DNA from: Candidatus Sungiibacteriota bacterium
Lineage (GTDB): Bacteria > Patescibacteriota > Minisyncoccia > Sungbacterales > JACQCQ01
Assembly (NCBI GenBank): GCA_016201505.1
Contig: JACQCQ010000002.1
Span: forward strand, 76,750 to 140,749
Direction: 5' to 3'
DNA length: 64,000 nucleotides
Under the pieces are notes generated by a model. That model had not been told where the DNA came from. It was given only the letters and a program-made list of their open reading frames with translations, and ran no database searches. Position numbers and translations under genes: made by a program. Position 1 is the stretch's first letter, and each line of letters opens with the position of its first letter. Below are positions 162-55,329 of this stretch, piece by piece.

Positions 162-524
162 ATGGGGAAGGAATGGACAACCAAGCTGTATGAGGGCATA
201 GGCGTTGATCTAGTAGAGCTCGCTGCCATTAGAAGGGCTCGGTTTCCTTGGCGTGTCGCCGAGTATTTTTTAACCCCCCGTGAGTATAAAGAAGCCCAAA
301 ACTCATCAGATCTGTATCAATTTATTGCTTCGCGCTTTGCGGCAAAAGAAGCAGTCATCAAGGCCTTTCCGGCGGATCTTTCACCAAAAGACTTCGAAAT
401 CATTAAGGGCGGTAGGAAGCCAGAAGTGCGATTTATACATAAACAGCATGCGGGATTTCGGGCATTCGTAAGTCTTTCCCATTCAGAACACTACGTCATA
501 GGATTTGCCAAAGTTACCTCATGA
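162..524 (+). CDS. acpS: holo-[acyl-carrier-protein] synthase (4'-phosphopantetheinyl transferase, AcpS type)
   Basis: 120 aa. The N-terminal 'GIGVDLVEL' and 'FAAKEAVIKAF' motifs are typical of AcpS. Its stop overlaps the start of the next gene (ATGA). Confidence 0.75.
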   Translation: MGKEWTTKLYEGIGVDLVELAAIRRARFPWRVAEYFLTPREYKEAQNSSDLYQFIASRFAAKEAVIKAFPADLSPKDFEIIKGGRKPEVRFIHKQHAGFRAFVSLSHSEHYVIGFAKVTS

Positions 525-2242
525 ATGCGCTAGATTATCTAAAATTGGCTTCGCGTATCTCCGAAACCGATCGTGGACGATTTCCTTCAACCATTTCAGT
601 AAATATTATTACTAATTTTACTGATGATGTGTTTCTGAAAGTCTTGACCGGAATATGTCTTGAAAATTCAATCTATCCGGTCATTTGGAGAGCACCCTAC
701 AAGCAATATCATCTAGCGTTTAAATCAGGAGAAATTCCGAAAGATGTCGCCATCACGTTTATTTTCTTTTATCTAAATCCTTATCTTTACTCCGAATTCT
801 ATAATCCCGATCAGGTAAATGAACTATTCGACGATATTGAGAAGTTCGCCGAATCTACCAAAGGAACGGTGGTTATGAATTCGTTTATCACCCCCTACCG
901 AGGAGCATACGGCAATTTATTTGATAAAAGCGAGTTATTTAGCCTCGCTGAAAATTACAACCGGAGTTTATTTGAGCTTGAGAAAAGGTTAAAAAATTTC
1001 CGGGTCCTTGACGTAAATCGTCTCATGCACACACTCGGGGAACGACAGGCTCGTGATTTTAGGGGAATGTATGCCTTTGATTTTCCCTTTACGAATGATT
1101 TTGCAGTTGAGGTAGCGAAAGAATGGTTTTCTTATATTCGGGTGCTTTTGGGTAAAATCAAAAAATGCATTGTCGTGGACCTTGACGATACGGTATGGGG
1201 AGGGATATTGGGCGAAGTTGGGCCGCTGGGCATTCTTTTGGGAGAGGACTATCCGGGACGATGCTATCAAAACTTTCAGCGGGCTCTGGTTGAATTTCAT
1301 AACCGAGGCATTTTGCTCGCGATCAATAGCCGAAATAACTGGGAGGATGTAAAAGAGGTTTTTAATCAAAATCCGCACATGGTTTTAAAGGAAAGCCATT
1401 TTGCCTCAATTCAAACAAATTGGAATAACAAGGCCGATAATTTACGCGCCATTGCTGAAGAACTTAACATCGGCCTTGATAGCTTTGTCTTTTTTGATGA
1501 TGACCCCAATAATCGGGCGCTCGTCAAAACTATGCTGCCCGAGGTTTTAGTTCCCGAGTTTTCCATAGCGCCCGAGGAATATGTGAATATGCTCTATGGG
1601 CTTGACGAATTTAATCAGTTTGCGCTCACCGAGGAAGATACGGCCAGAGCCAAAATGTACGCCGAGGAACGCCAGCGCAAAGTAGTCGAGAAAGGCTCAG
1701 CGTCGTTCGATGAGTATATCGCAGGGCTCCAAATCGTGGTGAATGTTTCAGTAAATAAACTAGAGTATCTCACGCGTCTTTCCCAGCTAACATTAAAAAC
1801 CAATCAGTTTAATTTAACGACCAAGCGCTATTCAGAAAGCGAAGTTGCTGACTTAATCAAAAAAGGCTGTCGATTTTTTGCGGGCGATATCCAAGACAAA
1901 TTTGGTCGGTACGGAGTCACTATACTGGCTATTCTTTCTCCCCAAGAGAATGGAGTCGTTCGAATTGATAACTTTTTGATGAGCTGCCGCGTCGCAGGAC
2001 GAGGAGTTGAGTTTACTTTTTTTGATTACCTGCTTGAGCTCTTGGCCTCGGAAGGCGTAAAAAAAGTGACGGGACTGTTAATCGAAACACAAAAGAATCC
2101 TCCCGTAAGGGAGATTCTCCCCAATCTTGGATTCAAAATCAAAGAAAAAGGAGAAGGCGGGACTCTCTTTGAGATTAACCTAGAAGAGTATCAGATGTGT
2201 CAGCAACCGAACGTAAATCGGCATATCAAAATTGGATCCTGA
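521..2242 (+). CDS. FkbH-like HAD-IIIC family protein (N-terminal unknown domain + HAD/FkbH domain + C-terminal GNAT-like domain)
   Basis: 573 aa. The motif-I-like 'VVDLDDTVWGGILGEVG' matches the FkbH/HAD-IIIC signature (hhhDhDxTLWGG). The C-terminal ~150 aa look like an acyltransferase fold. It is co-oriented with ACP and MBOAT genes. Confidence 0.65.
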   Translation: MNALDYLKLASRISETDRGRFPSTISVNIITNFTDDVFLKVLTGICLENSIYPVIWRAPYKQYHLAFKSGEIPKDVAITFIFFYLNPYLYSEFYNPDQVNELFDDIEKFAESTKGTVVMNSFITPYRGAYGNLFDKSELFSLAENYNRSLFELEKRLKNFRVLDVNRLMHTLGERQARDFRGMYAFDFPFTNDFAVEVAKEWFSYIRVLLGKIKKCIVVDLDDTVWGGILGEVGPLGILLGEDYPGRCYQNFQRALVEFHNRGILLAINSRNNWEDVKEVFNQNPHMVLKESHFASIQTNWNNKADNLRAIAEELNIGLDSFVFFDDDPNNRALVKTMLPEVLVPEFSIAPEEYVNMLYGLDEFNQFALTEEDTARAKMYAEERQRKVVEKGSASFDEYIAGLQIVVNVSVNKLEYLTRLSQLTLKTNQFNLTTKRYSESEVADLIKKGCRFFAGDIQDKFGRYGVTILAILSPQENGVVRIDNFLMSCRVAGRGVEFTFFDYLLELLASEGVKKVTGLLIETQKNPPVREILPNLGFKIKEKGEGGTLFEINLEEYQMCQQPNVNRHIKIGS

Positions 2243-2243
2243 T

Positions 2244-2480
2244 ATGTCGAAACTTTCACATATTTTTTCTTCCATATTAGGTATTGATGAATCCCGCATC
2301 ACTCCAGATCTATCTCCCAATAATACTTCATCTTGGGATTCGCTGAATGCCATCATTCTTTTGACCGAAATCGAAAAAGCCTTTGCTACTAAATTTGATT
2401 TTAATGAGGCCATGTCAATTAAAAATTTTGGTGATGTTACTCAATTGATTGAATCGAAAGGACTCAATCCCCATGCCTGA
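2244..2480 (+). CDS. acyl carrier protein (DltC/ACP-like)
   Basis: About 78 aa with a 'SWDSLNAIILLTEIEKAF' Ser-containing DSL phosphopantetheine-attachment motif. The ATG at 2244 is preferred over the TTG at 2232 listed in the ORF track. Confidence 0.7.
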   Translation: MSKLSHIFSSILGIDESRITPDLSPNNTSSWDSLNAIILLTEIEKAFATKFDFNEAMSIKNFGDVTQLIESKGLNPHA

Positions 2481-2895
2481 AGCCATGGAACGAACCTACG
2501 AGGAACTAAAAACGGGTGAATCTTTTTCATTTGAAGTTCTTATCGACGAAGATCTCGTGGCAGCCTTTCGTCAACTTTCCGGCGACAGAAATCCGCTGCA
2601 TGAAAAAACAGAATATGCGCGAGCCTCTTCATTTGGGAAGCCTGTAGTACATGGCATGATTGCCGGCGCTTTCTTTTCTCGACTTGTCGGCATGCATCTG
2701 CCGGGAAAATTTGGGCTCTATCTTTCCCAGACGCTTCATTTTCGAAAGCCGATCTTCTTCGGAGATAAGGTTACGATCCGCGGAGAAATACTTGAAAAAA
2801 GTGAGGCCATGAAGACCATACGGGTCAAGACCGAGGCACTGACTCAAGACGGGATTTGTACGGACGGAGAAGCGCTGGTACGTTTGCTCAAATAA
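2473..2895 (+). CDS. MaoC-like (R)-specific enoyl dehydratase, hot-dog fold
   Basis: About 140 aa. 'NPLHEKTEYARASSFGKPVVHGM' is the MaoC/hot-dog signature (NPxH…VHG). The start was chosen at the ATG at 2473; the ORF-track start is a TTG. Confidence 0.65.
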   Translation: MPEAMERTYEELKTGESFSFEVLIDEDLVAAFRQLSGDRNPLHEKTEYARASSFGKPVVHGMIAGAFFSRLVGMHLPGKFGLYLSQTLHFRKPIFFGDKVTIRGEILEKSEAMKTIRVKTEALTQDGICTDGEALVRLLK

Positions 2896-2898
2896 GTC

Positions 2899-4341
2899 AT
2901 GGTTTTTAACTCATTTCAGTTTCTTCTCTTCTTTCCCGCGGTTGTGGCCATTTATTTTTTGTTGCCGCACTGCTGGCGCTGGGTTTTTCTCTTGCTTGCC
3001 AGCGGTTATTTCTATATGGCCTTTATCCCGAAATACATTTTCGTTCTGGGATTTTTGATTGTTATCGATTACTGGGCAGGGATCTTGATTGAACGAGCGC
3101 AAGCGCGAAAGCGATTTTTTTTGACTATCAGCATTCTCGCAAATGCCGGAATGCTGTTTGTTTTTAAATATTTCAATTTCTTTAATTCAAATCTCGATCA
3201 TCTTGCGCGTTTCCTTCACTGGAACTACCCCATCGGCTATTTGGCGTTGGCTCTGCCGCTCGGGCTCTCGTTTCATACCTTCCAGAGTCTTTCGTATGTC
3301 ATCGAGGTCTATCGCGGACGTCAAAAAGCTGAACGGAATTTCGGCATTTACGCCCTCTATGTAATGTTTTTTCCCCAGCTCGTCGCCGGCCCGATTGAAC
3401 GGCCGCAGAATCTGCTGCATCAGTTTTATGAGCGGCATATATTCCTGCCGGATCGCGTGGTTTTGGGACTGCGGCTGATGCTCTGGGGATTTTTCAAAAA
3501 GATTGTGGTGGCTGATAATATCGCCGGACTCGTGAATTTGGTATATGCCGCCCCGCCTCACTTTTCAGCGCCCGCAATACTGCTCGCCATCTTTCTTTTT
3601 ACCATTCAATTATACGCCGACTTCTCGGGATACTCGGACATTGCCAGAGGCTCGGCTCTGGTTCTCGGCTACCGCTTAATGGAGAATTTCAATCGCCCCT
3701 ATTTTGCAAAGTCGATAGCCGAATTCTGGAGGCGCTGGCATATTTCGCTTTCCAGCTGGCTTCGCGACTACATCTATTACCCGCTTGTTTTCAAAACCAG
3801 AAACCAGCCCGTTCGGGGCATGTATTTTGCGCTTCTTTTTACATTTCTTATATCCGGCGTCTGGCATGGAGCCGGTTGGACATTTTTAATTATGGGATTT
3901 TTATTCGGGTTTTATATTGTTTTTGGTTTAGTCACAAAATCATGGCGGGCATCAATACTGGAAAGTATCAAAATAGCGCGATGGCAGAACCTCCACGGCG
4001 CGATTCAGGCCTGTTTCACATTTTTGCTGGTTTCGTTCGCCTGGATTTTTTTTCGCGCCAGCTCGCTTCAGAACGCCTATGACATCATCCGCGGAACTTT
4101 TTTAAATTTTCGCTTCTCATACGCAGAGTTTAGTTCGCTCAATAAACTGCAAATCCTTTTTGGATTCATTGGAATTTCCGTTTTGTTCTTAGTTGAACTA
4201 ACTTCAAAAGATGCCGAGGTTTGGGGTCGGCTCCATTCTGTCGGGTCGCTTATGCGCTGGGGGATTTATAGCGGGCTCGCGCTTGCGATTTTGCTGCTGG
4301 GCTATTTTCGCGGCCAGACATTTATTTATTTCCAGTTTTGA
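2899..4341 (+). CDS. MBOAT family membrane-bound O-acyltransferase (DltB/AlgI-like)
   Basis: 480 aa and polytopic. The conserved His region 'ISGVWHGAGW' and the 'FWRRWHISLSSWLRDYIYYPL' block are typical of DltB/AlgI. Confidence 0.8.
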   Translation: MVFNSFQFLLFFPAVVAIYFLLPHCWRWVFLLLASGYFYMAFIPKYIFVLGFLIVIDYWAGILIERAQARKRFFLTISILANAGMLFVFKYFNFFNSNLDHLARFLHWNYPIGYLALALPLGLSFHTFQSLSYVIEVYRGRQKAERNFGIYALYVMFFPQLVAGPIERPQNLLHQFYERHIFLPDRVVLGLRLMLWGFFKKIVVADNIAGLVNLVYAAPPHFSAPAILLAIFLFTIQLYADFSGYSDIARGSALVLGYRLMENFNRPYFAKSIAEFWRRWHISLSSWLRDYIYYPLVFKTRNQPVRGMYFALLFTFLISGVWHGAGWTFLIMGFLFGFYIVFGLVTKSWRASILESIKIARWQNLHGAIQACFTFLLVSFAWIFFRASSLQNAYDIIRGTFLNFRFSYAEFSSLNKLQILFGFIGISVLFLVELTSKDAEVWGRLHSVGSLMRWGIYSGLALAILLLGYFRGQTFIYFQF

Positions 4342-4344
4342 TGC

Positions 4345-5292
4345 ATGAAAAATCTTACATTTTTTATTAAACTCGGCATTTTTTTGGGATTACTATCGCT
4401 CGCTGTTTTTTTAATTTCGGCAATCGGGCATGATTCAAATTCAGCCGCGGCCGTCATTTTAGATAAGCACGCGCTGCTTGCCGGCGCGCCATCGCCGAAA
4501 ATCATTTTAGTCGGCGGATCGAATATTACTTACGGTATTGACAGCCTGCGGATAGAGCGTGATGTCGGGCGTCCCGTCGTCAACATGGGTTATTCGCTCG
4601 GCGTTGGTTTGAGGTTCGCCCTAGAGGAAGTAAAACCAGATCTGAAAAAAGGCGACGCGGTTTTAGTGATTCCCGAATACGAACAATTTCAGGATTTATT
4701 TGAAGGCAATGGCGCGATCTTAGATTTAGTGCAGTATGATCCGTCGCTTGCGCGACACATAACTTCCTGGCGGCAGGTGCGCGAGATGGTTAAATATTTC
4801 CCGAACTTTTTGCAGAATAATTTTAAACGCGGCATGGTAGAGCCTCTCTTCCGTCGTTTCGGTCTTACCATTGGAAAAAGCGAACGCCGCTACTACCGCA
4901 GTGACTTTAATGCGGCTGGCGATCTCGTCGGCTATTTAAAAGATCCCCGATCCGATTCGATCGATATATCTCGATTAAATCCGGGGTATATCAATCCCGC
5001 TGCCATCGAGGCGCTCTCGAATTTCACCGCCTTTGCCAAACAAAAAGGCGCCCCGGTCGTTTTCATCTTCCCGTCTTACAGCACACCAGCCTATCAAGAA
5101 AATAAAGATACCGTCAATGCAATCTACAAAAAGCTCCAGCAGATTCGAGATCTGGTGATACCAGACTCGCCTAGCGATTTTATATTCTCCACGGGTCAAT
5201 TATTCGACAGCAGTTATCATTTGGTTGGCGCGGGTCGCGAAGATAGAACCTCTAGAATAATCGCGAAATTAAAAACGGTTTTGGCCCATTAA
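4345..5292 (+). CDS. DltD/AlgJ-like SGNH-fold accessory protein (membrane-anchored)
   Basis: 315 aa with an N-terminal TM helix. It has the block I 'ILVGGSNITYG' and a C-terminal 'DSSYHL' (DxxH) motif. It is positioned directly after the MBOAT gene, as dltD/algJ are. Confidence 0.55.
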   Translation: MKNLTFFIKLGIFLGLLSLAVFLISAIGHDSNSAAAVILDKHALLAGAPSPKIILVGGSNITYGIDSLRIERDVGRPVVNMGYSLGVGLRFALEEVKPDLKKGDAVLVIPEYEQFQDLFEGNGAILDLVQYDPSLARHITSWRQVREMVKYFPNFLQNNFKRGMVEPLFRRFGLTIGKSERRYYRSDFNAAGDLVGYLKDPRSDSIDISRLNPGYINPAAIEALSNFTAFAKQKGAPVVFIFPSYSTPAYQENKDTVNAIYKKLQQIRDLVIPDSPSDFIFSTGQLFDSSYHLVGAGREDRTSRIIAKLKTVLAH

Positions 5293-5327: not shown

Positions 5328-6011
5328 ATGGAAAAGAAATCGGTGCCCTATATTCCGCAAGTTGAATTAAAAAAGCACGCCGGAGAAGTAAAAACCCAAC
5401 TGCGAGTTTCGGATACCTGGACTCTCCGAGAAAATATTTTTTGGGACTTCCTTGAGGCTCGCATTCCCAAAGAAGCGCGCATTTTAGATGTGGGCACGGG
5501 GCCGGGAACTCTCTTGCGCCAGCTGGAGAGCCGAGGCTGGCACAATTTAAAAGGCTTAGACATTGCTGACTTTATGGACGCTGACTTGAAGCCGAAGTTC
5601 GAGCTCGCCGTTACCGACTTGGATTTTGAGGCCGCACCCTTCGCCGCGAACAGTTTTGATTTAGTTTTCGCGCTTGAAGTTATTGAACACCTGGAGAATC
5701 CATTCCATTTTATTCGCGAAATGAGCCGTATTCTGGATGACGGGGGATATTGTATCTGTTCCGCGCCGAATCCATTTCACATCTGGAATAAAGTAAAATT
5801 CTTGCTGAAAGGGAATCTACAGCACTGGCACGTGTATAACGATCACATCACCTTTATGACAAAGGACGTTTTCAAAAAGACTGTGCTCCGCTATTTCTCA
5901 ATTGAAGAAATTAAATATCGCTGGGGCTATTTGCCGTATTTCCCAAAGATCAACATGCCGCGAACTGAATTATTTGGCAGGAATGTTTGCTATTTTCTTA
6001 AGAAGATTTGA
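5328..6011 (+). CDS. class I SAM-dependent methyltransferase
   Basis: 227 aa. Motif I is 'LDVGTGPGTL' and the motif II/III region is 'DLVFALEVIEHL'. Confidence 0.7.
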   Translation: MEKKSVPYIPQVELKKHAGEVKTQLRVSDTWTLRENIFWDFLEARIPKEARILDVGTGPGTLLRQLESRGWHNLKGLDIADFMDADLKPKFELAVTDLDFEAAPFAANSFDLVFALEVIEHLENPFHFIREMSRILDDGGYCICSAPNPFHIWNKVKFLLKGNLQHWHVYNDHITFMTKDVFKKTVLRYFSIEEIKYRWGYLPYFPKINMPRTELFGRNVCYFLKKI

Positions 6012-6032: not shown

Positions 6033-6052
6033 TGTGTCACAGCGTTGACACA
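6033..6052. promoter_or_regulatory. perfect inverted repeat TGTGTCA-N6-TGACACA upstream of the GC-rich transferase gene (candidate operator)
   Basis: The sequence tgtgtcacagcgttgacaca reads directly as an inverted repeat. An AT-rich stretch and a GGAG RBS follow. Confidence 0.35.
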
Positions 6053-6123
6053 TTTTAAATATTTATGTAAATTATCTCCCGGTACATTAAGTCGCCGGTT
6101 AAATCCGGAGAAAGAGGCGCGTT

Positions 6124-7227
6124 TTGCCCAAAAAGGTTGTATTCTGCCTCGGAGATGGCGGCAACGGTGAGTACTACCTCGCCCTTCGTCCGCATCTGGA
6201 AGCGGCCGGTGTCGAGCACGAGGTACTGATGGATCCGAAGGGGGCTGCGAAGGTTCTCCTCGAGAAGAGGGGAATTCCCTTCAGGCTGACAGAGGGTAAG
6301 GAGGACATCGACTGCAAACAGTACGACCATGTCCTGGTCGGCAGCGGCAACAAGGCGCGCGATCTGATTAGGAACGCGACGGAGAACGCCCAGAAGGCAG
6401 GCGTTCGTGTCACCTGGTTCTGCGACATTCCGCACTCTGGGTGCGAAGAAGCCTTTCGAGATCTTGTCCCGTCGTCGATGGCCGTCTTCGACGGCCTGAC
6501 ACGGGACCGGCTTCTCAAGATGAAGTCGGCGCTCGACGAGAGCAAGATCTTCGTCATCGGCAATCCCGCCTTCGACAACCTGCCAACGCTGAAGAAGAAT
6601 CATGCAGTCTTGCGCGCGGCGATCTTCAGCTCGACGGGCCTTCGGGACCTGCAAGATCAGCTCGTCGTTTACTTCGGCTCTTCTTCGGCGCAGTTTGATC
6701 TCGTCGGTGAGTCGCTAGAGCCGCAGATCGAGTGGGTGCAGAAGAATCCGCGCGTGAAGTACTACTGCGCCACTCATCCCGCCGACCTGAAGAAGGATGA
6801 GGTCACTGCGCTCGTCGCAACGCTCGGCAGTCAACTCATAACCGAGAGGTTTTCCAACGACGATCTCACAGTTGCGGCCGACATGGTTGTCACCGATTAC
6901 TCAACGCTGGGGATTCAGTCATGCCTTATCGGCACGCCAACGGTGTTCCTGATGGGTCCGTCAGCCCAGGCTTACCAAGAGAAAGAGCGAGGAGCGAAGT
7001 ACCCGGTATTCCCGGTACTCGACCTCGCGCGTGGCTTTATCTACCAGGGGAAGAGCTACACGCCAGCCCTCGGCGTCTGGAACATCGCTCGCATCACCGA
7101 AGCGCTTGACAAGGTCCTCCTGGATCCGGATCAGTGGAGGCTGATGCGGCTTGCCGCCCAGCTTCCTGAGTTCGAACGCATGGCCGACGGCCACGCTGGA
7201 GAGCGGTTCATCAAGAACGTCCTGTAG
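6124..7227 (+). CDS. GT-B fold transferase, TagB/TagF (CDP-glycerol glycerophosphotransferase)-like; compositionally foreign (GC-rich) gene
   Basis: 367 aa with a TTG start after GGAGAAAGAGG. The C-terminal 'VVTDYSTLGIQSCLIGTPTVFL' resembles the TagF-family nucleotide-binding block. GC content is visibly far above the flanks, which produces spurious antisense ORFs. A stem-loop terminator sits at 7252–7290. Confidence 0.45.
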   Translation: MPKKVVFCLGDGGNGEYYLALRPHLEAAGVEHEVLMDPKGAAKVLLEKRGIPFRLTEGKEDIDCKQYDHVLVGSGNKARDLIRNATENAQKAGVRVTWFCDIPHSGCEEAFRDLVPSSMAVFDGLTRDRLLKMKSALDESKIFVIGNPAFDNLPTLKKNHAVLRAAIFSSTGLRDLQDQLVVYFGSSSAQFDLVGESLEPQIEWVQKNPRVKYYCATHPADLKKDEVTALVATLGSQLITERFSNDDLTVAADMVVTDYSTLGIQSCLIGTPTVFLMGPSAQAYQEKERGAKYPVFPVLDLARGFIYQGKSYTPALGVWNIARITEALDKVLLDPDQWRLMRLAAQLPEFERMADGHAGERFIKNVL

Positions 7228-7251
7228 CAGCAAGTCTCGGCAGTCCGAACG

Positions 7252-7290
7252 CAAACGGCGGCGCACCAAGTGGTGCCCGCCGTTTTCTCA
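7252..7290 (+). terminator. Rho-independent terminator (GC stem + T-tract)
   Basis: aacggcggcgcaccaagtggtgcccgccgtttt. Confidence 0.5.
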
Positions 7291-7313
7291 TAACCACGTT
7301 TGCAGAACTCAAA

Positions 7314-7353
7314 CCGAATTAGTTCGATAGACTAGTCTATCGAACTAATTCGG
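7314..7353. repeat. 40-bp perfect palindrome (ccgaattagttcgatagactagtctatcgaactaattcgg) between convergent genes
   Basis: A perfect inverted repeat with a GACTAGTC centre. The core 'ttcgatagactagtctatcgaa' recurs at 62268–62299. Confidence 0.8.
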
Positions 7354-7356
7354 GAA

Positions 7357-8724
7357 TTATTGCAGATGCCTAAGCAGAAAATTCCCGATGCGCTCACCAG
7401 ATTTTCCGTCGATTTTCCAGACTTGCTCGTCAAATAATTTTTTTCTGCCTGCTTTGTGAATTGATGGATTTTCCACATATTTTTTGGTGGCCTCGACTAA
7501 TTCTTTTTCGTTGTTTACTCTCCAGCAAGCGCCCGTTTCCTGAACGTATTTATAATGCGTGATGTCCATGCTGTGGCGCACCGATATGTAATAGGGTTTA
7601 TTTTTGTAGCCGTCAAAAGCGATCAAAACAGTCGGCTTATCGTAAATGGCCGCCTCAATCGTCAGGGTCGACCCCGTGTTCATGGTGACGTCACTCCAGT
7701 AAATCGTAGAAATTAAAAGTTTTACGTCTTCTTCGTCGAACTCGCGATCGCCCTTGATCTCGGCAATGCTTTTCCCCGGAATATGGAAGACGACATTCTT
7801 CCAGCTTTTGAGATCGGCCAGGTCAACTTCATATTTTGGATGCGAGCGCACAAAAATGATCGATGGGGGCAGTTCGCCGCGCTCGATGGCATGGTTTAGC
7901 ATCTTTATGTGGTCCCGCGGGTCGTCAATCGCCAGCACCCCGCCCATGAAATAGGTGATTAATTTTTTTGACGGGTCGATGTTGAACATTTTAAAAAACT
8001 CATCGCGCGTGAGGCGCCACTCCGCTTTCAGGTAGTTGTCATATTGCGGCAGGCCGACAACCGTAACTCGATTTTCAGGCATGTCGCCGATCCTCATCGC
8101 CTCGCCTTTTATGTAGGGATTGTTCACGATTAACTGATCCGGCTTTACGCGGAGCATAGTTTTTGAGGTAAAATTATCCCAGCTTTTGGTCATGCCGATT
8201 GATGGAATGCCGCGGCGCCTGGCCGCCTTGATCAACGCAACAGAAGTTCCGTGGATCATATTCGTCCCGAAAACCAAAGATGGATTATATTTTTCAAAGT
8301 ATTTGTCCCAGATCGCGTCCTCATGGAACAGGGGATCAACGGCACGCACCAACTCGCGCCAGACGCGAAAATGACCGAGAAGCCAGATCGCCCGCTTTAA
8401 GGGCAGTATGACTTTATTGGCCAGCGACGGATTTTCGTAGACGAGTTTATTTTGTCTGATCTTAATCGTTCCCGTCGGGATGCTGTTGTATGAAACGGTG
8501 CGGACAAACTGGCGCATCGGATGTAAGTCGTACTCTAAATCCTCGATCGGCTCGACCATAAAATTCAAAGCCCTGAACCGGGCTTTATAATTAGTGACTT
8601 TTTTTTGGGGCACGAACAAGACGACGGAGAGATCCGGCGTACGCGCGAGCAGGGGATACATATCCGAGAGCATCAGATTTTTCGTCTCGGCTTGAGTGGG
8701 CAGCGCGATAAACAGAGTTTTCAT
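7357..8724 (-). CDS. TagB/TagF-like glycosyl/glycerophosphotransferase (GT-B)
   Basis: 455 aa. The C-terminal 'ISTIYWSDVTMNTGSTLTIEAAIYDKPTVLIAFDGY' resembles the CDP-glycerol glycerophosphotransferase family. Confidence 0.45.
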   Translation of the reverse strand: MKTLFIALPTQAETKNLMLSDMYPLLARTPDLSVVLFVPQKKVTNYKARFRALNFMVEPIEDLEYDLHPMRQFVRTVSYNSIPTGTIKIRQNKLVYENPSLANKVILPLKRAIWLLGHFRVWRELVRAVDPLFHEDAIWDKYFEKYNPSLVFGTNMIHGTSVALIKAARRRGIPSIGMTKSWDNFTSKTMLRVKPDQLIVNNPYIKGEAMRIGDMPENRVTVVGLPQYDNYLKAEWRLTRDEFFKMFNIDPSKKLITYFMGGVLAIDDPRDHIKMLNHAIERGELPPSIIFVRSHPKYEVDLADLKSWKNVVFHIPGKSIAEIKGDREFDEEDVKLLISTIYWSDVTMNTGSTLTIEAAIYDKPTVLIAFDGYKNKPYYISVRHSMDITHYKYVQETGACWRVNNEKELVEATKKYVENPSIHKAGRKKLFDEQVWKIDGKSGERIGNFLLRHLQ

Positions 8725-8796: not shown

Positions 8797-9513
8797 ATGA
8801 ATGTACTTGGCGTTATTGGCGCTCGATCCGGCTCGAAGACTATCCAGAATAAAAATATCAAGCTGCTTTTCGGGAAGCCGCTTTTGGTGTGGATCGCCGA
8901 GGCCGCTAAGAATTCGCAGTATGTCAACCGAGTTATTGTTTCCACCGATTCGCCGGCATACGCCGAGATTGCCAAACAGTATGCCATCGAGGCCCCCTTT
9001 ATGCGTCCGGCGGAATTAGCCGAGGACCATGTGCCGGATTTTGACTATCTCTATCACGCCGCGACCTGGCTGCATGAAAATGAAGGCTGGAAAGCCGATA
9101 TCATTTTGAGGCTCCCGCCGACCTCGCCCCTTTGCACGACGGAGCATATTGACGCCTGCGTTAAACTTTTAATGGATGATCCGGAGGCTGACTCATCCCG
9201 GACTATTACCCCGGCCTCAAAGCATCCTTATAAGCTCTGGCGCATAAACGGCAACTATATCGAGCCATTTCTCTCGGAAGAATATACTGGCTTGAAAGAC
9301 GCGCATAATATGCCGAGACAGGCCTTCCCCAAAGCTTTCCAGCATGTTGACGTGATTGCGCTCCGCTGGAAAACCTTGGTCGACGATAAATCCATGGCGG
9401 GGAAAAAGATTCGTTTTCACGAAATTCCCAAAATGAATGCCATTGATATTGACACGGAAGCGGATTTTAAAATTGCCGAAGAGTTGTTAAAAAAAAGAAT
9501 GCATGCCGAATAA
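8797..9513 (+). CDS. neuA: acylneuraminate/KDN cytidylyltransferase (CMP-nonulosonic acid synthetase, NeuA family)
   Basis: 238 aa. The N-terminal 'GVIGARSGSKTIQNKN' is typical of CMP-NeuAc/CMP-Kdo synthetases. Confidence 0.7.
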   Translation: MNVLGVIGARSGSKTIQNKNIKLLFGKPLLVWIAEAAKNSQYVNRVIVSTDSPAYAEIAKQYAIEAPFMRPAELAEDHVPDFDYLYHAATWLHENEGWKADIILRLPPTSPLCTTEHIDACVKLLMDDPEADSSRTITPASKHPYKLWRINGNYIEPFLSEEYTGLKDAHNMPRQAFPKAFQHVDVIALRWKTLVDDKSMAGKKIRFHEIPKMNAIDIDTEADFKIAEELLKKRMHAE

Positions 9514-10333
9514 AACGACGAGCGCCCTTTTTGATTTAACCGCTGAAGTTGCCATTGTCACCGGCGGGCAGGGACAACTGGGTTCGGAATATGTAAAAAC
9601 ATTGGCGGGCGCCGGTGCCTCGGTCGCAATTTTCGATATTGCTCCGCGGGTGCGGGATTCAAACCAAAATCTCATCGATCAGAAGTGGCCGGTCTCGACG
9701 CACGTGGTTGATATTTTAGAAAAAGATCAAATTGCCGGTGCCTTTGATGCAGTTGAAAAAACATTCGGGACGCCGACGATATTGATAAATAACGCCGGGC
9801 TGGACTCGCCGCCCGATGCTTCGGAAAAAGACAACGGCCCGTTTGAGACCTATCCCGAGTCCTCTTGGGATGCCGTCGTAAATTCGCACATCAAGGGAGC
9901 GTTTTTGATGTCGCAAGAATTCATCGGCCGGGCGAAAAAAGCAAAAAAGAAAGCCAGCATAATTAACGTCTCTTCAACCTACGGCCTGGTTTCGCCTGAT
10001 CAGTCGATCTACGAGTTTCGCCGCAAAAACGGCGCGTCATTTTATAAGCCCGTTGCCTATTCGGTGGCTAAATCGGGCATTTTGAATTTGACGCGCTGGC
10101 TGGCTGAATACGGCGGGCCGTTCGGGATTCGAGTGAATACTCTGGTGCCCGGAGGTGTATTCGCAAATCAAGATAAAGAATTTATCAAAGAATATTCAAG
10201 GCGCACCATGATCGGCCGCATGGCGAATGTCGATGAATACAACGGCGCAATTTTATTTTTGGCTTCCGCGAAAGCCTCTGCCTATATGACCGGCTCGATG
10301 CTCGTCATTGACGGGGGCTGGACCGCAAAATGA
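9503..10333 (+). CDS. SDR family NAD(P)-dependent oxidoreductase
   Basis: 276 aa with the 'VAIVTGGQGQLG' Rossmann motif and the active-site 'YSVAKSG' (YxxxK). Confidence 0.75.
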   Translation: MPNKTTSALFDLTAEVAIVTGGQGQLGSEYVKTLAGAGASVAIFDIAPRVRDSNQNLIDQKWPVSTHVVDILEKDQIAGAFDAVEKTFGTPTILINNAGLDSPPDASEKDNGPFETYPESSWDAVVNSHIKGAFLMSQEFIGRAKKAKKKASIINVSSTYGLVSPDQSIYEFRRKNGASFYKPVAYSVAKSGILNLTRWLAEYGGPFGIRVNTLVPGGVFANQDKEFIKEYSRRTMIGRMANVDEYNGAILFLASAKASAYMTGSMLVIDGGWTAK

Positions 10334-10340
10334 AAAAGCT

Positions 10341-11804
10341 ATGGCCTATCCGCGAAAAGTTCTGCACTGGATAAACGATGCAGAGGTGAAGGCCTCCTCA
10401 AATTCGGTATTTAAAAAAATAAACCCGGCAACGGGCGCGGTTTTAGCCGAAGTTGCCCGCGGCAATACGGCAGACGTCGAAAAAGCAGTTGCGGCCGGCA
10501 AAGCCGCACTCCCAGCTTGGTCGCGGACGCTGGTCGTGCGTCGCGGCGAGATTCTGCGAAATGCGGTCCTGCTGATGATGCAAAAAAAAGCTGAAATCGC
10601 CGAAATCACGGCGAGAGAAAGCGGCAAGGCGGCGGCGCTCGCTTTAGGTGAAGCCAGCGCGGCCATCGAATGCGGGTTTTTCTTTGCCGGAGAAGGACGG
10701 CGCTATTTCGGCGAGGTCTTAACGTCCGCGGAGGCGCATCGCGAAGTAACCATGGTGCGGCAGGCCAGCGGGCTCGGTGTGCTGCTGACGCCATTTAATA
10801 ATCCCGCGCCGGGGGTTGCCTGGAAACTTTTTCCGGCGCTTCTCTGCGGAAACTCCGTGATTATCAAATCGCACGAGGACGTTCCGTATGTCGCCGTATG
10901 GTTTGCTAAAATTTTAAAAGAGGCGGGGTTACCGAAAGGCGTACTTTCGGTGGTGCAGGGAACGGGTTCCGAAGCCGGTGAGCCGCTGACCCGGCATCCC
11001 GATGTCGCCTTCATTAGTCTTACCGGGTCCCCCGCAACCGGTAAAAAAGTTTTACACGCCGCAGCCGATCGGCTGGCCAAAGTTTCGATTGAATCCGGCG
11101 GCAAAAATCCATTTATTGTTTGCGATGACGCGGATTTAGATCGGGCCGCAACGCTGGCTTCGGCCTCAGCCTTCATTGATGCCGGTCAGCGCTGTGCGGC
11201 CGCGAGCCGCATTATCGTAATGGAGGCCGTCTACGAAGAATTTAAGCAGAAATTATTGGAGCGGGTAAAAGCGCTTAAAGTCGGCGATCAAGAAGGAGAT
11301 AATTACGGCGCCATTATCAACGAAAAGCGCATGCGAGCCATTCTCGATTCGATTGAAACAGCCAAGACTCGTGGTGCGCGTGTTGTATGCGGCGGCGAGC
11401 GGCTCACTGATGAATCTCATAAAAACGGATTTTTCATTTCGCCTGCCGTTCTTGAGGAGGTAGATCCGGATGACGAGATTTCACAAAAAGAAATCTTCGG
11501 ACCGGTGACGATTCTCTACCGCGTGAAGACATTTGACGAGGCGGTGGCGCTTGCCAACAATTCGCCGTTTCGATTATCGAGCGCTTTGCACACCAAAAGC
11601 ATCCATCGTGCGCAAGAATTTAAAGAGCAGTACCGCGGCGGGGTCGTGCGCATCAACGGCGCAACGCACGGCAGTGAGCCGCATATGCCCTTTGGCGGAC
11701 TCGGCCTTTCGGGCAACGGCTGGCGCGAGCCGGGAACGAAGGCACTCGACTTTTATTCCGAGTGGAAGCAAATCTCGACAGATCATGATCCGTTAAAAAT
11801 TTAG
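10341..11804 (+). CDS. aldehyde dehydrogenase family protein
   Basis: The catalytic 'ESGGKNP' and Cys region 'GQRCAAASR' are present, with an NAD-binding 'GSPATGKKV'. The ATG at 10341 is preferred over the TTG at 10308. Confidence 0.75.
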   Translation: MAYPRKVLHWINDAEVKASSNSVFKKINPATGAVLAEVARGNTADVEKAVAAGKAALPAWSRTLVVRRGEILRNAVLLMMQKKAEIAEITARESGKAAALALGEASAAIECGFFFAGEGRRYFGEVLTSAEAHREVTMVRQASGLGVLLTPFNNPAPGVAWKLFPALLCGNSVIIKSHEDVPYVAVWFAKILKEAGLPKGVLSVVQGTGSEAGEPLTRHPDVAFISLTGSPATGKKVLHAAADRLAKVSIESGGKNPFIVCDDADLDRAATLASASAFIDAGQRCAAASRIIVMEAVYEEFKQKLLERVKALKVGDQEGDNYGAIINEKRMRAILDSIETAKTRGARVVCGGERLTDESHKNGFFISPAVLEEVDPDDEISQKEIFGPVTILYRVKTFDEAVALANNSPFRLSSALHTKSIHRAQEFKEQYRGGVVRINGATHGSEPHMPFGGLGLSGNGWREPGTKALDFYSEWKQISTDHDPLKI

Positions 11805-14479: not shown

Positions 14480-15577
14480 ATGAGATTTCCCCTAGGAGCA
14501 AAACTAAAGCGATTAATCACGACCTTACCCCATAAGGTAAAGGTCGGGAGTCAGTATGTCGGCCAAGGCAAGCCGGTATTTTGCATTGCCGAGATCGGTA
14601 ACAACCACAACGGCGATTTCGAGCTGGCTAAAAGAACGATTGAGGCCGCTAAAGACGCGGGAGCCCAGGCCGTGAAGTTCCAACGCCGAGCCGTAGAAGC
14701 CGTATTTGTGCGCGAGATGCGCGAGATGGCGTACGATAACCCGCGCTCGATGGCTCCAACCTACGGCGAGCATCGAAAAAAGCTTGAACTCCCGATTGAA
14801 CAGCTCCGCGAGTTAAAAGAATTTTCGGAGAGTCTGGGTCTGGTATTTTTTGTGACTCCCTTTGATAAAAAAAGCGCCGACGATCTTGAATCAATCAATA
14901 TTGGGGCCTACAAAATCGCTTCGTTTGATGTGACCAATCTTTCGCTTCTGGGCCATGTTGCTAAAAAGGGCAAGCCGATTCTGCTTTCAACCGGCGGCTC
15001 GACGCTTGAAGAAATAGATACGGCCATTGAGACGATTTTAAAATACAACAATCGGCTGATTGTAAATCACTGCACCTCGATGTATCCCACACCGGATGAG
15101 AATTTAGATTTAAACATGCTGCCGGTATTGCGGGAGCGATATAAACCTTTGCCGATCGGCTACTCGGGGCATGAGCCGGATTTTCTGCCTTCTGTTATCG
15201 CAGTGGCGCTCGGCGCTTCGGCTGTTGAGCGTCATTTTACGATGGACAAAACCATGCGCGGATCGGATCACCACATGTCGATTGAGCCCCCGGAGTTTAA
15301 AAAGATGGTAGATGACATTAGACGAATTACGGTTGCGCTTGGCGCCAAGGAAAAACGCATCCATGCCGGCGAAATTCCCATCCGCGAAAAACATGCTAAA
15401 AGCCTAGCCACCCGTGTCCGCATTCCGAAAGGCGCCGTGATTACGCGCGCGATGCTGACCGTCAAAAGTCCGGGTACGGGGCTCAAGCCCTCGATGGTTG
15501 ATTTCATTGTCGGTAAAACGGCGCGCTACGACATTGACGAGGACGCATTGATTAAAACCGATTCATTTGAAGTCTAG
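14480..15577 (+). CDS. neuB: N-acetylneuraminate/KDN-9-phosphate synthase family (NeuB) with C-terminal SAF domain
   Basis: 365 aa. 'CIAEIGNNHNGDFELAKRTIEAAKDAGAQAVKFQ' is the NeuB signature. A C-terminal SAF (antifreeze-like) domain is present. Confidence 0.8.
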   Translation: MRFPLGAKLKRLITTLPHKVKVGSQYVGQGKPVFCIAEIGNNHNGDFELAKRTIEAAKDAGAQAVKFQRRAVEAVFVREMREMAYDNPRSMAPTYGEHRKKLELPIEQLRELKEFSESLGLVFFVTPFDKKSADDLESINIGAYKIASFDVTNLSLLGHVAKKGKPILLSTGGSTLEEIDTAIETILKYNNRLIVNHCTSMYPTPDENLDLNMLPVLRERYKPLPIGYSGHEPDFLPSVIAVALGASAVERHFTMDKTMRGSDHHMSIEPPEFKKMVDDIRRITVALGAKEKRIHAGEIPIREKHAKSLATRVRIPKGAVITRAMLTVKSPGTGLKPSMVDFIVGKTARYDIDEDALIKTDSFEV

Positions 15578-15582
15578 AAATT

Positions 15583-15609
15583 GAAAATCCGCCGAGAGCG
15601 GATTTTCAA
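15583..15609. terminator. hairpin terminator gaaaatccgccgagagcggattttc
   Basis: A perfect stem flanked by A/T runs, so it can act in either direction. Confidence 0.5.
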
Positions 15610-15765
15610 TTGCAATTTAGCTAATGCTTCGCTATCATTTTGTGGTATGCCAACTCAAGTTTCCCCCAAGTCTAATGCCGATCAATATCACGGAGTGATT
15701 TTGAGAACGGCGGACGTAACAAGGTCGGATAGGAATTTAGGTCTGGGGAAAATTTAAGCGGGTAT

Positions 15766-16347
15766 GAATCCCGTTAGAAGCCGCGATCGCATACACGGGG
15801 TACAATGGTATGAAGCTCCTCAACATGAATAGTTTAACTCGAGCGATAACGCGAATGATCGCGATCTGCTTCTAACGGGATGAATCCCGTTAGAAGCCGC
15901 GATCGCATACACGGGGTACAATGGTATGAAGCTCCTCAACATCCTCAACATGAATAGTTTAACTCGAGCGATAGCGCGGATGATCGCGATCCCGCTACCA
16001 CAAATCCTTCTTGGATCTGGCTACGGGACAAGCATACTATGACAGATGTATTATTAACTACGACTCGCCCCGTAGTCACCGAGTCTATGAGGTGTACTCA
16101 CGGGGTCTGCTTCTAACGGGATGAATCCCGTTAGAAGCCGCGATCGCGAAAACCAATCTTTCCGAGAGTTTATTTTAATACTTAATGTTAGGCAGACTCC
16201 GCGTTTGATCGCGATCCCGCTACCACAAATCCTCCATGGATTTGGCTACGGGACTAGAGAGCTATGACAGGCTTACTATTAACTACGGCTCGCCCCGTAG
16301 TCACCGAGCACGTGAGGTGTACTACTGGGGTCTGCTTCTAAACGGGA
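15766..16347. mobile_element. array of three MITE-like units bounded by the inverted termini GAATCCCGTTAGAAGCCGCGATCGC … GCGATC(T/C)GCTTCTAACGGGAT
   Basis: Unit junctions form 45-bp palindromes (ctgcttctaacgggatgaatcccgttagaagccgcgatcgc). Units 1 and 2 share a 5' module. Units 2 and 3 share a 140-nt 3' module (gatcgcgatcccgctaccacaaatcc…). A solo copy lies at 58884–58994. Confidence 0.6.
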
Positions 16348-28396: not shown

Positions 28397-28861
28397 ATGG
28401 AAAGTAAAAATAAAAAGGTCATGGTCGCAGTTTCCGGCGGATTTGACCCGGTGCATATTGGGCATGTTCGGATGTTTTGCGAGGCGCGAAAACTCGGAGA
28501 CTCCCTCGTTGTCATATTGAATAACGATCATTGGTTAAAAAAGAAAAAAGGGTTTAGTTTTATGCCCGAGAAAGAACGCAAAGAGATTCTGGAAAGCTTT
28601 CGCTGGGTGGACAAGGTAGTGCTGACATCCCATCCCCGGAATCCAAAAGATATGAGCGTTTCGCGAGAGTTGTTGAAAATAAAGCCAGCCATTTTTGTGA
28701 ACGGCGGCGACCGCAATCAGCATAATACGCCAGAAAACGAGGTCTGCAAGCAAATTGGCTGCCGCATAGTATTCGGAGTCGGGCGGGGCGGCAAGGTGCA
28801 GTCAAGCTCCTGGTTGCTTGGAAAACATTTAGGAAGGCATAAAGTAGGTAAGAAAAATTAG
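28397..28861 (+). CDS. cytidylyltransferase-like nucleotidyltransferase (TagD/RfaE domain II-like, HIGH motif)
   Basis: It carries 'GGFDPVHIGHVRM' (the H-x-G-H motif). Confidence 0.6.
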   Translation: MESKNKKVMVAVSGGFDPVHIGHVRMFCEARKLGDSLVVILNNDHWLKKKKGFSFMPEKERKEILESFRWVDKVVLTSHPRNPKDMSVSRELLKIKPAIFVNGGDRNQHNTPENEVCKQIGCRIVFGVGRGGKVQSSSWLLGKHLGRHKVGKKN

Positions 28862-32152: not shown

Positions 32153-32186
32153 TCATGAGACGCCATCCATCTTCGTCTTAAGACAT

Positions 32187-32216
32187 ACCTATACCGTACT
32201 ATAGTACGGTATAGGT
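32187..32216. repeat. 30-bp perfect palindrome acctataccgtactatagtacggtataggt
   Basis: Read directly. It lies 3' of dinB, has a GTACTATAGTAC centre, and is related to the palindrome at 48065–48098. Confidence 0.8.
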
Positions 32217-32253
32217 ACTTTGCGGCCGCGATGGTTTTGCGGGCCTGAGGCCT

Positions 32254-36668: not shown

Positions 36669-36722
36669 GAAATAGGTAATAGGAAATAGGTAATAGGAAA
36701 TGGGAAATAGGTCATAGGTAAA
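36668..36722. repeat. tandem 14-bp repeat GGAAATAGGTAATA ×4
   Basis: Read directly. The same motif recurs inside the next CDS at 36994–37040. Confidence 0.8.
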
Positions 36723-36783
36723 GAAGGCGCCGCGGCGCCTTCTTTAATTTGGCGAAATAGGGAATTTATAGAAAAATGGCTGT

Positions 36784-44891: not shown

Positions 44892-45290
44892 ATGAATAAA
44901 GAATTAAGAATAATGGAAAACCGAAAAATAGAAAATTTTAAAGATCTAGAGGCCCGGAAGAAAGGTCAGGCTTTTGTACTCAATATCTACCAGGTTACCA
45001 AACAATTTCCAAAAGAAGAGCAGTTCGGTCTTATTGCTCAGCTTCGGCGGGCTGGTGTCTCCATTACTTCTAATATTGCAGAGGGATTTAGTCGAAGATC
45101 ATATCGAGAAAAATCTCAGTTCTATGCCATCGCATTAGGATCTTTAACCGAGGTCCAAAGCCAGCTTCTAAGTGCACGTGATATTGGATATTTGGACCCA
45201 GATATCAATAACGCTTTGGATAGCGCAGGTGTCGAAATTCATAAAATAATTAACGGACTTATTAAGTCGTCCTTTATTCTTTATTCTTGA
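44892..45290 (+). CDS. four-helix-bundle protein (23S rRNA intervening-sequence protein family)
   Basis: 132 aa. 'LIAQLRRAGVSITSNIAEGFSRRSYREKSQFYAIALGSLTEVQSQL' is characteristic of this family. Confidence 0.65.
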   Translation: MNKELRIMENRKIENFKDLEARKKGQAFVLNIYQVTKQFPKEEQFGLIAQLRRAGVSITSNIAEGFSRRSYREKSQFYAIALGSLTEVQSQLLSARDIGYLDPDINNALDSAGVEIHKIINGLIKSSFILYS

Positions 45291-48053: not shown

Positions 48054-48064
48054 ATTTCATTCCT

Positions 48065-48098
48065 ATACCTATACAGTACTATAGTACTGTATAGGTAT
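48065..48098. repeat. 34-bp perfect palindrome atacctatacagtactatagtactgtataggtat
   Basis: Read directly. It is related to the palindrome at 32187–32216. Confidence 0.8.
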
Positions 48099-48101
48099 AT
48101 T

Positions 48102-50675: not shown

Positions 50676-51133
50676 CGTTCATCATGGGGAAGGTCAGTAC
50701 GACTTCCCCTCCACAATTCAGGTACATACAAACATAAGTCGAATCGCAAATGGTTCGGCAGGCTCACCACAAGTGAATCTGTCGAACTTTCTCTCGATGA
50801 TTCTTGAGACTCGTAATTACATTACTTGTCCCGAGCGAAGTCGAGGGATCTCACTCGTTCTCTGATGAATGTCAGAGGACAAGAAAATAAAAAGCGGTTA
50901 TTAAGGGCGCATGGTGGATGCCTTGGCTTTAAACAGCGATGAAGGACGTAGCGTGCTTGCGATAAGCATCGGGGAGGTGGCGAGCAACCTTTGATCCGGT
51001 GATGTCCGAATGGGGAAACCCTAGGGGAGTAATGTTCCCTAACCCGTCGTGTAATAGCGATGTGGAGTCAACCTGGTGAAGTGAAACATCTCAGTAACCA
51101 GAGGAAAAGAAAACAAGTTGCTTCGCAACTTTT

Positions 51134-54130: not shown

Positions 54131-54142
54131 TGGAGGATATGA

Positions 54143-55261: not shown

Positions 55262-55329
55262 AGCGTGAGCGGAGCAGCTAACGGTCCCAAGCCCTCGTCA
55301 ATGTCAGCGATAACTATAAGTAACGATTG

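Follow-up and report, generated by a model that had tools for sequence, protein, structure and literature searches.

Gene content and signals of the locus

The stretch of DNA analysed here (64 kb, hereafter the window) belongs to a metagenome-assembled genome of Candidatus Sungbacteria and sits on a contig of 211 kb. It carries a glycan locus in which a gene of 367 amino acids (aa) is situated between a methyltransferase gene and a gene of 455 aa in convergent orientation (Table 1). The 367-aa gene is the subject of this section, due to its aberrant content of guanine and cytosine (GC) and its product, a glycosyltransferase-B-type (GT-B) protein. All signals that had been described around it in the initial annotation, i.e., an inverted repeat, a Shine-Dalgarno sequence, a TTG start codon, an intrinsic terminator and a 40-bp palindrome, are present.

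The Shine-Dalgarno sequence GGAGAAAGAGG ends 6 nt ahead of the TTG at 6124, which is the sole possible start because of an in-frame TAA at 6100 and a conserved LGDGG motif from codon 9 onwards. Likewise, the homologue of L023, the closest relative, starts with TTG after a GGAGG box (L001 to L054 and P0012 are labels for the contigs and the locus of relatives). Upstream of the homologues of L001, L006, and L050, a TTGACA or TTGACT hexamer is again found in AT-rich DNA, and in every locus examined the family gene looks stand-alone, with an AT-rich promoter region of the TTGACA type and its own terminator. The 367-aa gene may thus be seen as a self-contained unit composed of a promoter-like site, Shine-Dalgarno sequence, TTG start and GC-rich terminator. 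A scan of the region against Rfam revealed no known RNA family.

Composition of the 367-aa gene

With a GC content of 0.589, the gene clearly departs from the 47 other open reading frames (ORFs) of the window (0.483 ± 0.031), and its GC content at third codon positions (GC3) is 0.745 compared to 0.520 ± 0.054 in the other ORFs, of which none exceeds 0.607 (z 4.2). Synonymous codon usage deviates as well (G statistic per codon 0.488 versus 0.134 ± 0.044 in the 27 other genes of at least 250 aa; z 8.1), and the tetranucleotide usage of 6124-7227 is the most deviant among 228 windows ranked. All three comparisons therefore bear out the proposal that the gene is a compositional outlier. Third positions supply approximately 70% of the GC excess, and the codon shift is a general move toward codons ending in G or C (AAG 87% versus 32%, GAG 77% versus 44%, ATC 67% versus 37%, TTA 0%). 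GC at first codon positions (GC1) amounts to 0.63 and is high in every family member (0.59-0.66), which reflects the amino-acid make-up of the protein.

The GC-rich block has sharp edges at approximately 6085 and 7295 and takes in the ribosome-binding site, the ORF and the terminator, the 3' untranslated stretch 7228-7295 having a GC content of 0.618. As for the earlier statement that the gene exceeds all its neighbours in GC richness, GC3 and whole-gene GC bear it out, but local GC does not, since the 5' part of the aldehyde dehydrogenase (ALDH) gene (10400-11000) reaches an equal GC content of 0.59, with a native GC3 of 0.573 for the ALDH gene as a whole. The housekeeping genes SecA, SecD, and MurB show GC3 values between 0.54 and 0.60. 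Ribosomal-protein or elongation-factor genes, which could serve for a comparison of expression-linked codon bias, do not occur in the window.

Antisense ORFs of 199, 134, and 102 aa overlap the gene, as had been noticed before, but they are no longer than predicted by synonymous-codon shuffles. Stop-free runs in the alternative frames of the window gene and of 10 homologues match such shuffles without consistent excess. The long antisense ORFs are by-products of composition, and an overlapping antisense gene as the cause of the high GC content was rejected, because the alternative-frame runs equal the shuffles in all 11 family members.

An assembly or binning chimera might be considered with regard to the sharp compositional edges and the source, a metagenome-assembled genome. 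However, the block extends over just 1.2 kb of the 211-kb contig and is flanked by native sequence at either end, it comprises exactly one intact gene with ribosome-binding site and terminator, and many independent assemblies have homologues in loci of this type, in several cases with the same anomaly. We regard the probability of a chimera as negligible.

Protein family, fold and motifs

Relatives of the 367-aa protein are scarce. A word-indexed search of 5.8 billion proteins recovered only 5, and a second word-indexed protein search with the family profile only 4 proteins; when 1.84 billion cluster representatives were searched exhaustively with a profile, 36 relatives were obtained at E <= 1e-30, all of them at most 39% identical to the window protein. 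Organism names in the close family are restricted to Sungbacteria and Paceibacterota, both of which belong to the candidate phyla radiation (CPR, Patescibacteria). More distant relatives, with 24-33% identity over partial alignments, originate from Proteobacteria and one Nanoarchaeota genome.

The AlphaFold2 model, built from a family alignment of 32 sequences, is confident and contains two Rossmann domains (pLDDT 95.4, pTM 0.92). Among solved structures, Foldseek placed UDP-N-acetylglucosamine (UDP-GlcNAc) 2-epimerases nearest, with template modelling (TM) scores of 0.57-0.68, followed by HepE, TarL, and TagF, all with a probability of 1.0; the fold is therefore GT-B. The family-invariant residues are K77, G146, D151, H218, and S260, and P219 is nearly invariant. 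These positions accompany the motifs GNPAFD, FHPAD, TDYST, and a C-terminal DGxAGxR.

The structural ranking would also suit a divergent NeuC-like hydrolysing UDP-sugar 2-epimerase, which would supply the hexosamine substrate to the NeuB-type synthase and would not be a transferase. The WecB/NeuC epimerases (PF02350; PDB 1f6d, 3dzc, and 5xvs, the latter being NeuC) are the top structural neighbours and of similar size (approximately 370 aa), the sole Pfam match of the window protein is Epimerase_2 (23.8 bits, residues 126-276), and a canonical Epimerase_2 gene was not seen in the annotated part of the window. In E. coli WecB the active site comprises D95, E117, E131, and H213, and the G-N-x-x-x-D and H-P-type motifs of the window protein resemble motifs of the epimerases. 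Yet the Epimerase_2 score stays below the cut-off of 30.6 bits, and profile and motif evidence favours the TagF-like clade. A search of the family profile against PDB placed TagF first (4.5e-5), then Cps3D (1.2e-3, positions 116-358), and only then the epimerases (1.6e-3), and the alignments to TagF and Cps3D have the motifs GxPxxD, a conserved His, TDYS[ST], and a C-terminal DGxAxxR in common. Within the 32 family members, Glyphos_transf matches (15 at E <= 0.01, best 7.8e-9) are twice as frequent as Epimerase_2 matches (7, weak), and a weak Glyphos_transf match is also precomputed for the closest relative, P0002. Genomic context speaks against an epimerase as well: L050 possesses a genuine Epimerase_2 gene alongside the family member, the closest NeuB/HAD/CTP_transf_3 clusters do without the 367-aa gene, and the HAD phosphatase points to synthesis via a sugar phosphate, for which NeuC would be dispensable. 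Hence an epimerase is a distinctly unlikely alternative.

Profile-profile comparison (hhalign) of the 367-aa family with the family of the adjacent 455-aa protein gave a probability of 99.3% (E 8e-21, 297 columns). Judged by these profiles, the two families are homologous, the latter being BFO_1060-like putative nonulosonic-acid transferases. The 455-aa protein matches NCBIfam BFO_1060_trans (NF046086) with 48.2 bits (8.5e-13), the 367-aa protein with 18.6 bits (8e-4), and weak matches to this model occur in 9 of the 32 family members; both scores lie far below the cut-off of 200 bits. BFO_1060 represents a family of pseudaminic/legionaminic-acid transferases of Tannerella forsythia, of which the orthologues Tanf_01245 and TFUB4_00887 were the proteins tested; according to PMC5420450, these enzymes are TagB-like, of the GT-B type, and possess an HP motif. 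Bacterial sialyltransferase-like enzymes contain this HP motif together with a D/E-D/E-G motif (PMC5420450). BFO_1060, Tanf_01245, and TFUB4_00887 resemble the two window genes in the TagB-like GT-B type, in a putative HP motif and in the vicinity of genes for the synthesis of nonulosonic acids activated with cytidine monophosphate (CMP). In the 367-aa family a clear D/E-D/E-G motif was not observed in the alignments.

The relationship to the CDP-glycerol or CDP-ribitol phosphotransferases TagF, TagB, and TarL (PF04464; PDB 3l7i and 8va1) and to Cps3D (8qoy), a capsule polymerase of the TagF-like kind, is remote. The GT-B fold is common to both, GNPAFD corresponds to GYPRND, H218 aligns with the HH of Cps3D, and TDYS[ST] and DGxAxxR recur, but with 367 aa the window protein is much smaller than TagF (729 aa), and it has no match to Pfam Glyphos_transf (PF04464, cut-off 22.1 bits) at E <= 0.01. 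Weak matches to TarB and BFO_1060 were obtained, and no curated family threshold is passed. The catalytic base of TagF-like enzymes is a His of the N-terminal domain (H444 in TagF, H300 in TarL). At the position that corresponds by eye, a strand ends with W98-F-C-D101 (family consensus W-F-G-D) and lacks a His, the hidden Markov model alignment stopping short of this region. The His of the TagF 'WHG' motif thus appears to be replaced by W-F-(G/C)-D, so that the chemistry may differ. Taken together, the 367-aa protein is a GT-B protein, remotely TagF-like, in a small unnamed family seen so far in the CPR. From the initial proposal of a TagF-like CDP-glycerol glycerophosphotransferase, the GT-B assignment and the remote TagF-type motifs remain, whereas the lack of a Glyphos_transf match, of a TagD-type enzyme (see below), and apparently of the catalytic His leaves CDP-glycerol chemistry unsupported.

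The glycan locus and the putative function

Table 1. Location of genes, signals and palindromes in the window.
Feature	Position	Strand	Remarks
O-acylation-like module: ACPS 4'-phosphopantetheinyl transferase, 573-aa protein of unknown function, MaoC dehydratase, MBOAT, 315-aa protein without family match	162-5292		Upstream of the methyltransferase gene
Methyltransferase gene	5328-6011	+	Directly upstream neighbour of the 367-aa gene
Inverted repeat TGTGTCA-N6-TGACACA, perfect 7-bp arms	6033-6052	+	21 nt past the methyltransferase stop, followed by TTTT
Sigma-70-like promoter match TTGACA-17-TAAATT (10/12)	6045-6073	+	Predicted, for the GC-rich gene
Shine-Dalgarno sequence GGAGAAAGAGG	6107-6117	+	Near the start of the GC-rich block (~6085-6095)
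367-aa gene, putative GT-B-fold, remotely TagF-like transferase	6124-7227	+	Product identical to NCBI HY220_00515, annotated 'hypothetical protein'
GC-rich intrinsic terminator of the 367-aa gene	7253-7291	+	Hairpin 7253-7285 with a 13/14-bp stem, one bulge and a 4-nt loop; UUUCUC tail
Perfect 40-bp AT-rich palindrome	7314-7353	-	Terminator-like hairpin with UUUGAGUUCU tail on the minus strand
455-aa gene, TagF-like, BFO_1060-like, putative CMP-nonulosonic-acid transferase	7357-8724	-	Native composition, GC3 0.607
CTP_transf_3 cytidylyltransferase gene, CMP-sugar synthetase type	8797-9513	+	Likely supplier of the cytidine-activated donor
ALDH gene	10308-11804		GC 0.548, local GC up to 0.59
HAD-type phosphatase-like gene, 192 aa	13739-14317	+	Part of the ulosonic/nonulosonic-acid synthesis core
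NeuB-family synthase gene	14480-15577	+	Part of the ulosonic/nonulosonic-acid synthesis core
Long palindromes listed	7314-7353, 62264-62303, 48064-48099, 32186-32217, 58295-58336, 55866-55901, 36719-36746, 15868-15897, 16109-16138		

Further genes of the locus encode an SDR, a transketolase-like protein, a Wzy_C-TPR protein, a UDP-sugar dehydrogenase, Bac_transf, and GT4, followed by MurB and SecA. At least 10 further CPR contigs with a 367-aa homologue have a locus of this type. CTP_transf_3 is a direct or close neighbour of the family gene in the window, L001, L006, L051, L052, L053, L054, and the P0012 locus. NeuB accompanies it in the window, L001, L006, L051, and L054; L052 and L053 contain CTP_transf_3 without NeuB in the available DNA. 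A 455-like gene of 450-470 aa occurs adjacent to the family gene or in its vicinity in the window, L001, L006, L023, L051, L053, L054, and probably the P0012 locus. Moreover, P0163 and P0164 (698 aa) represent a 455-like transferase fused to a CTP_transf_3 cytidylyltransferase, and in L048 (554-2419) CTP_transf_3 is fused to NeuB; at the level of sequence, these fusions link the TagF-like proteins functionally to CMP-sugar chemistry.

A TagD/TarI-type cytidylyltransferase, which would supply CDP-glycerol or CDP-ribitol, was not found in the cluster, which contains CTP_transf_3 only; a CTP_transf_like gene of 154 aa (28397-28861) lies 21 kb off and outside the glycan cluster. Unlike that of the TagF-type enzymes, the context is therefore one of nonulosonic-acid synthesis and not of teichoic acid synthesis. 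Nothing was found in the literature on nonulosonic acids in Patescibacteria.

We propose that the 367-aa protein is a cytoplasmic transferase which would add one further residue to the glycan built by the locus. Because of the locus context (CTP_transf_3, NeuB) and the HP motif we infer a cytidine-nucleotide-activated donor, most likely a CMP-ulosonic acid derived from the neighbouring NeuB, HAD, and CTP_transf_3 genes. His218-Pro219 would hold the donor phosphate, as do His584 of TagF and the 'HP' motif of sialyltransferases. The gene itself would be an accessory part of an otherwise vertically conserved locus.

Flanking repeats, terminators and palindromes

The inverted repeat 6033-6052 folds weakly (-10 kcal/mol, z -2.6), and its right arm holds the TTGACA -35 hexamer of the promoter match. 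Perfect 7-bp-arm repeats with loops of 3-10 nt occur 149 times in the window compared to 30 ± 4 in shuffles, so that this repeat is not statistically special. It was initially taken for an operator that, together with the 40-bp palindrome, brackets the GC-rich gene, and both elements might then mark the ends of an inserted segment. An operator would agree with the overlap between the repeat and the predicted -35 box, where repressors act, and a perfect 7-bp-arm repeat has an estimated chance probability of only about 0.05 in a spacer of 112 nt; in addition, the promoter of L006 contains a different perfect repeat with 10-bp arms. However, a second copy was not detected in the 64 kb even at 2 mismatches, the sequence is not conserved upstream of the homologues, and the position 21 nt past the upstream stop followed by TTTT is terminator-like. 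As ends of an insert, the repeat and the palindrome are both misplaced, because they lie outside the GC-rich block in host-like AT-rich DNA, and the palindrome abuts the stop of the 455-aa gene and has similar counterparts after other gene ends. We therefore consider both an operator and insert ends very improbable. The repeat is probably a weak terminator of the methyltransferase gene that overlaps the -35 box, which is also the simpler explanation.

The terminator hairpin 7253-7285 (-25.8 kcal/mol, z -3.7) is located inside the GC-rich block. The palindrome 7314-7353, with -28.2 kcal/mol (z -7.5), is far beyond chance; it lies outside the block, 3 nt past the point where the convergent 455-aa gene stops, and is part of a window-wide set. 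In total, the window contains 13 perfect palindromes whose arms measure 12 nt or more; all of them are intergenic or in the rRNA region, and several directly follow gene ends. Those listed in Table 1 are mostly AT-rich, have arms of 12-21 nt, mostly without spacer, and in several cases are situated 2-50 nt after gene ends. The palindromes 62264-62303 and 7314-7353 have a 22-bp core, TTCGATAGACTAGTCTATCGAA, in common, and their outer arms differ but stay perfectly complementary. Similarly, the palindromes at 48064 and 32186 differ by an A/C change that is matched by a T/G change. These compensated differences argue for selection on symmetry. Two identical 30-bp copies are found 241 bp apart in the 658-bp gap 15578-16235. 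Most likely, the palindrome 7314-7353 is not an insert border but an element of the host, which would act as a hairpin of the terminator type or as a symmetric binding site. The inverted repeat and the palindrome would accordingly serve as host transcription signals of the two flanking genes.

A consensus promoter, TTGACA-17-TATAAT, is present in L006 (665-730) upstream of the Paceibacterota homologue, and a perfect inverted repeat with 10-bp arms, TATACCACTA-T-TAGTGGTATA, is situated between its -35 and -10 boxes. By its sequence and placement, the L006 repeat looks more operator-like than the repeat 6033-6052.

Origin of the 367-aa gene

Compared to the counterparts in L001, the products of the locus are conserved to different degrees: CTP_transf_3 is 74% identical, NeuB 66%, the 455-aa protein and the SDR 62% each, the transketolase-like protein 57%, and the methyltransferase 45%. 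For the 367-aa protein the identity drops to 36.5%, and the 192-aa HAD-type protein is 36% identical. The gene order differs as well. In the window, the methyltransferase gene (+) is followed by the 367-aa gene (+), the 455-aa gene (-), and CTP_transf_3 (+), whereas in L001 the order is methyltransferase, 456-aa gene, 367-aa gene, and CTP_transf_3, with the 367-aa gene upstream of the 456-aa gene and co-directional instead of convergent. Furthermore, the family gene is absent next to three of the four closest 455-aa homologues (L046, L048, and L049; 59-63% identical) within the available DNA around them, and L001 is the fourth, which has it.

L048, in which a methyltransferase gene is convergent with a 458-aa gene without a 367-aa gene in between, was considered as an empty site, but was dismissed because homology between its methyltransferase and the one in the window could not be detected. 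The direction of polymorphism was likewise dropped. The near-identical contigs L001 to L004 and L046/L047 differ at just 0-16 positions, which is too few.

Acquisition of the gene is favoured by its compositional anomaly, its discordant divergence, its different placement and its patchy presence, and on these grounds the 367-aa gene was probably acquired horizontally. Most probably, it entered from a GC-richer lineage, for which a GC content of approximately 59-63% is implied and which possibly was another CPR bacterium, and it would not yet have drifted to the 48% GC of its host.

Loci for O-antigens and capsules, whose glycosyltransferase genes are horizontally exchanged, offer a parallel. 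There, too, conserved genes for sugar-nucleotide synthesis flank variable, patchily distributed transferase genes of atypical composition. The classical cases, however, are usually AT-rich relative to the genome, and unlike them, the window gene is GC-rich, flanking insertion sequences or recombination scars were not found, and one family is the GC3 outlier in five separate CPR lineages.

Several observations weigh against such an acquisition. A donor was not found among the 1.84 billion cluster representatives, in which the nearest homologue is only 39% identical, and Thiomonas, Acidovorax, and other proteobacterial relatives are too remote (24-28% identical) to be considered as donors. At the edges of the block neither an integrase, a transposase, a tRNA gene nor a target-site duplication was observed; the window as a whole is devoid of tRNA genes, and direct or terminal repeats at the edges are limited to short ones at chance level. 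A phage or plasmid vector was rejected, since relatives were found neither in IMG/VR contigs nor, by tblastn, in PLSDB, and none of the compared genomes is close enough to provide an empty site. To these points the GC excess of further family members has to be added (see below), and, with regard to the enzymatic part of the proposal, the apparent replacement of the TagF-type His and the failure to pass a curated threshold.

Family-wide GC excess

The GC comparison comprised 11 independent loci out of approximately 36 family representatives at E <= 1e-30, whose family proteins are 21-52% identical to one another. In 10 of these 11 loci the family gene is GC-richer than its neighbours (Wilcoxon p 0.002), and in five (window, L001, L050, L051, and L053) it is the gene with the highest GC3, where 1.4 are expected (P 0.004). 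The GC3 difference amounts to +0.14 to +0.24 in these five loci and to approximately 0 or less in the other six, which are roughly native (L005, L006 partly, L023, L024, L052, and L054). Control families of the same loci (455-like, CTP_transf_3, and NeuB) have a mean GC3 difference of approximately 0. Four of the outliers (window, L001, L050, and L051) also diverge more than any other member; L053, the fifth, shows no unusual divergence.

These data bear on the possibility that the gene is a long-term resident, inherited vertically, whose GC richness is kept by synonymous or mRNA selection or by GC-biased conversion of a gene prone to recombination and whose low identity is due to fast evolution. 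Residence agrees with the presence of homologues in such loci on at least 10 further CPR contigs, with the GC excess in 10 of 11 loci and the top GC3 in five, and with the lack of a donor or mobility signature; given the uniformly high GC1, the protein itself accounts for some of the GC excess. On the other hand, the GC3 excess is absent in six of the 11 members and is hence no constant trait of the family, the gene is missing at three of the four closest 455-aa homologues, and its position and orientation change between loci. Moreover, the codon shift is of the general GC type (AAG 87%, GAG 77%) without a recognisable pattern of translational selection, and an overlapping reading frame is not indicated. 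Long-term residence thus appears unlikely, although to a lesser degree than an epimerase function.

The distribution of the GC3 excess is bimodal and thus more in line with episodic transfers than with a uniform constraint. It is, however, demanding to assume five separate 'recent' transfers, all of them from donors that are unsampled, and a single recent transfer event is unproven. The claim of a recent acquisition is therefore only partly sustained: patchy presence, variable position and the identity of 36.5% versus 45-74% support an acquisition, whereas a recent date is not supported in view of the lack of a donor, the nearest homologue at 39%, and the same excess in five of the 11 divergent members. 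Orthologues at the same locus and with the same composition in related CPR genomes, which had been named beforehand as evidence to the contrary, exist in part, since the locus is the same in many cases and the anomaly is present in some, but not in all.

With some preference, we interpret the GC3 pattern as the result of episodic transfers from GC-richer lineages into an accessory slot that is prone to exchange. Alternatively, GC richness might be a recurrent property of the family. A mobile promoter-to-terminator cassette might circulate among CPR bacteria from a GC-rich reservoir, or a gene-specific force, i.e., GC-biased conversion at a recombination hotspot or synonymous-site selection, might act in the reduced genomes; we judge this rather improbable, about on a par with long-term residence. 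Altogether, we favour with modest confidence the view that the 367-aa gene encodes a GT-B transferase of a CPR family, is accessory to a conserved glycan locus, was acquired from a GC-richer lineage, and is flanked by repeats that represent signals of the host.

Glycosyltransferase genes of odd composition are commonly observed in glycan loci, and the event is of a familiar kind; alone, such a gene opens no long-standing question. CPR bacteria, however, are thought to be episymbionts, and their surface glycans, which are probably central to host attachment, are little characterised. Here, a gene hitherto annotated as hypothetical is placed as an accessory, TagF-like GT-B enzyme in a locus conserved in the CPR (SecA, MurB, Wzy_C-TPR, NeuB, and CTP_transf_3). 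If it was imported, it provides an example of glycan diversification by gene exchange in very small genomes, and the family-wide GC3 excess offers a concrete handle on how often such exchange happens. The recurrence of this excess across CPR lineages was unexpected and is the point worth following.

Other features of the window

The ALDH gene has no counterpart in the syntenic L001, where the SDR gene adjoins the transketolase-like gene, and thus represents a second accessory gene in the locus. The gene at 45306-47318 codes for a type IV coupling-protein ATPase of the TrwB/TraG-like type that contains a zinc-finger domain. It is preceded by two genes without family match, one of which (44892-45290) is very AT-rich (GC 0.378).

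The 23S rRNA match at 50889-57015 spans 6.1 kb compared to a model of 2.99 kb and therefore contains insertions of approximately 3.1 kb; rRNA genes of the CPR frequently contain introns. The ORFs listed for the stretch from 51 to 55 kb fall inside this rRNA gene, which is followed by a 5S rRNA gene at 58511-58628.

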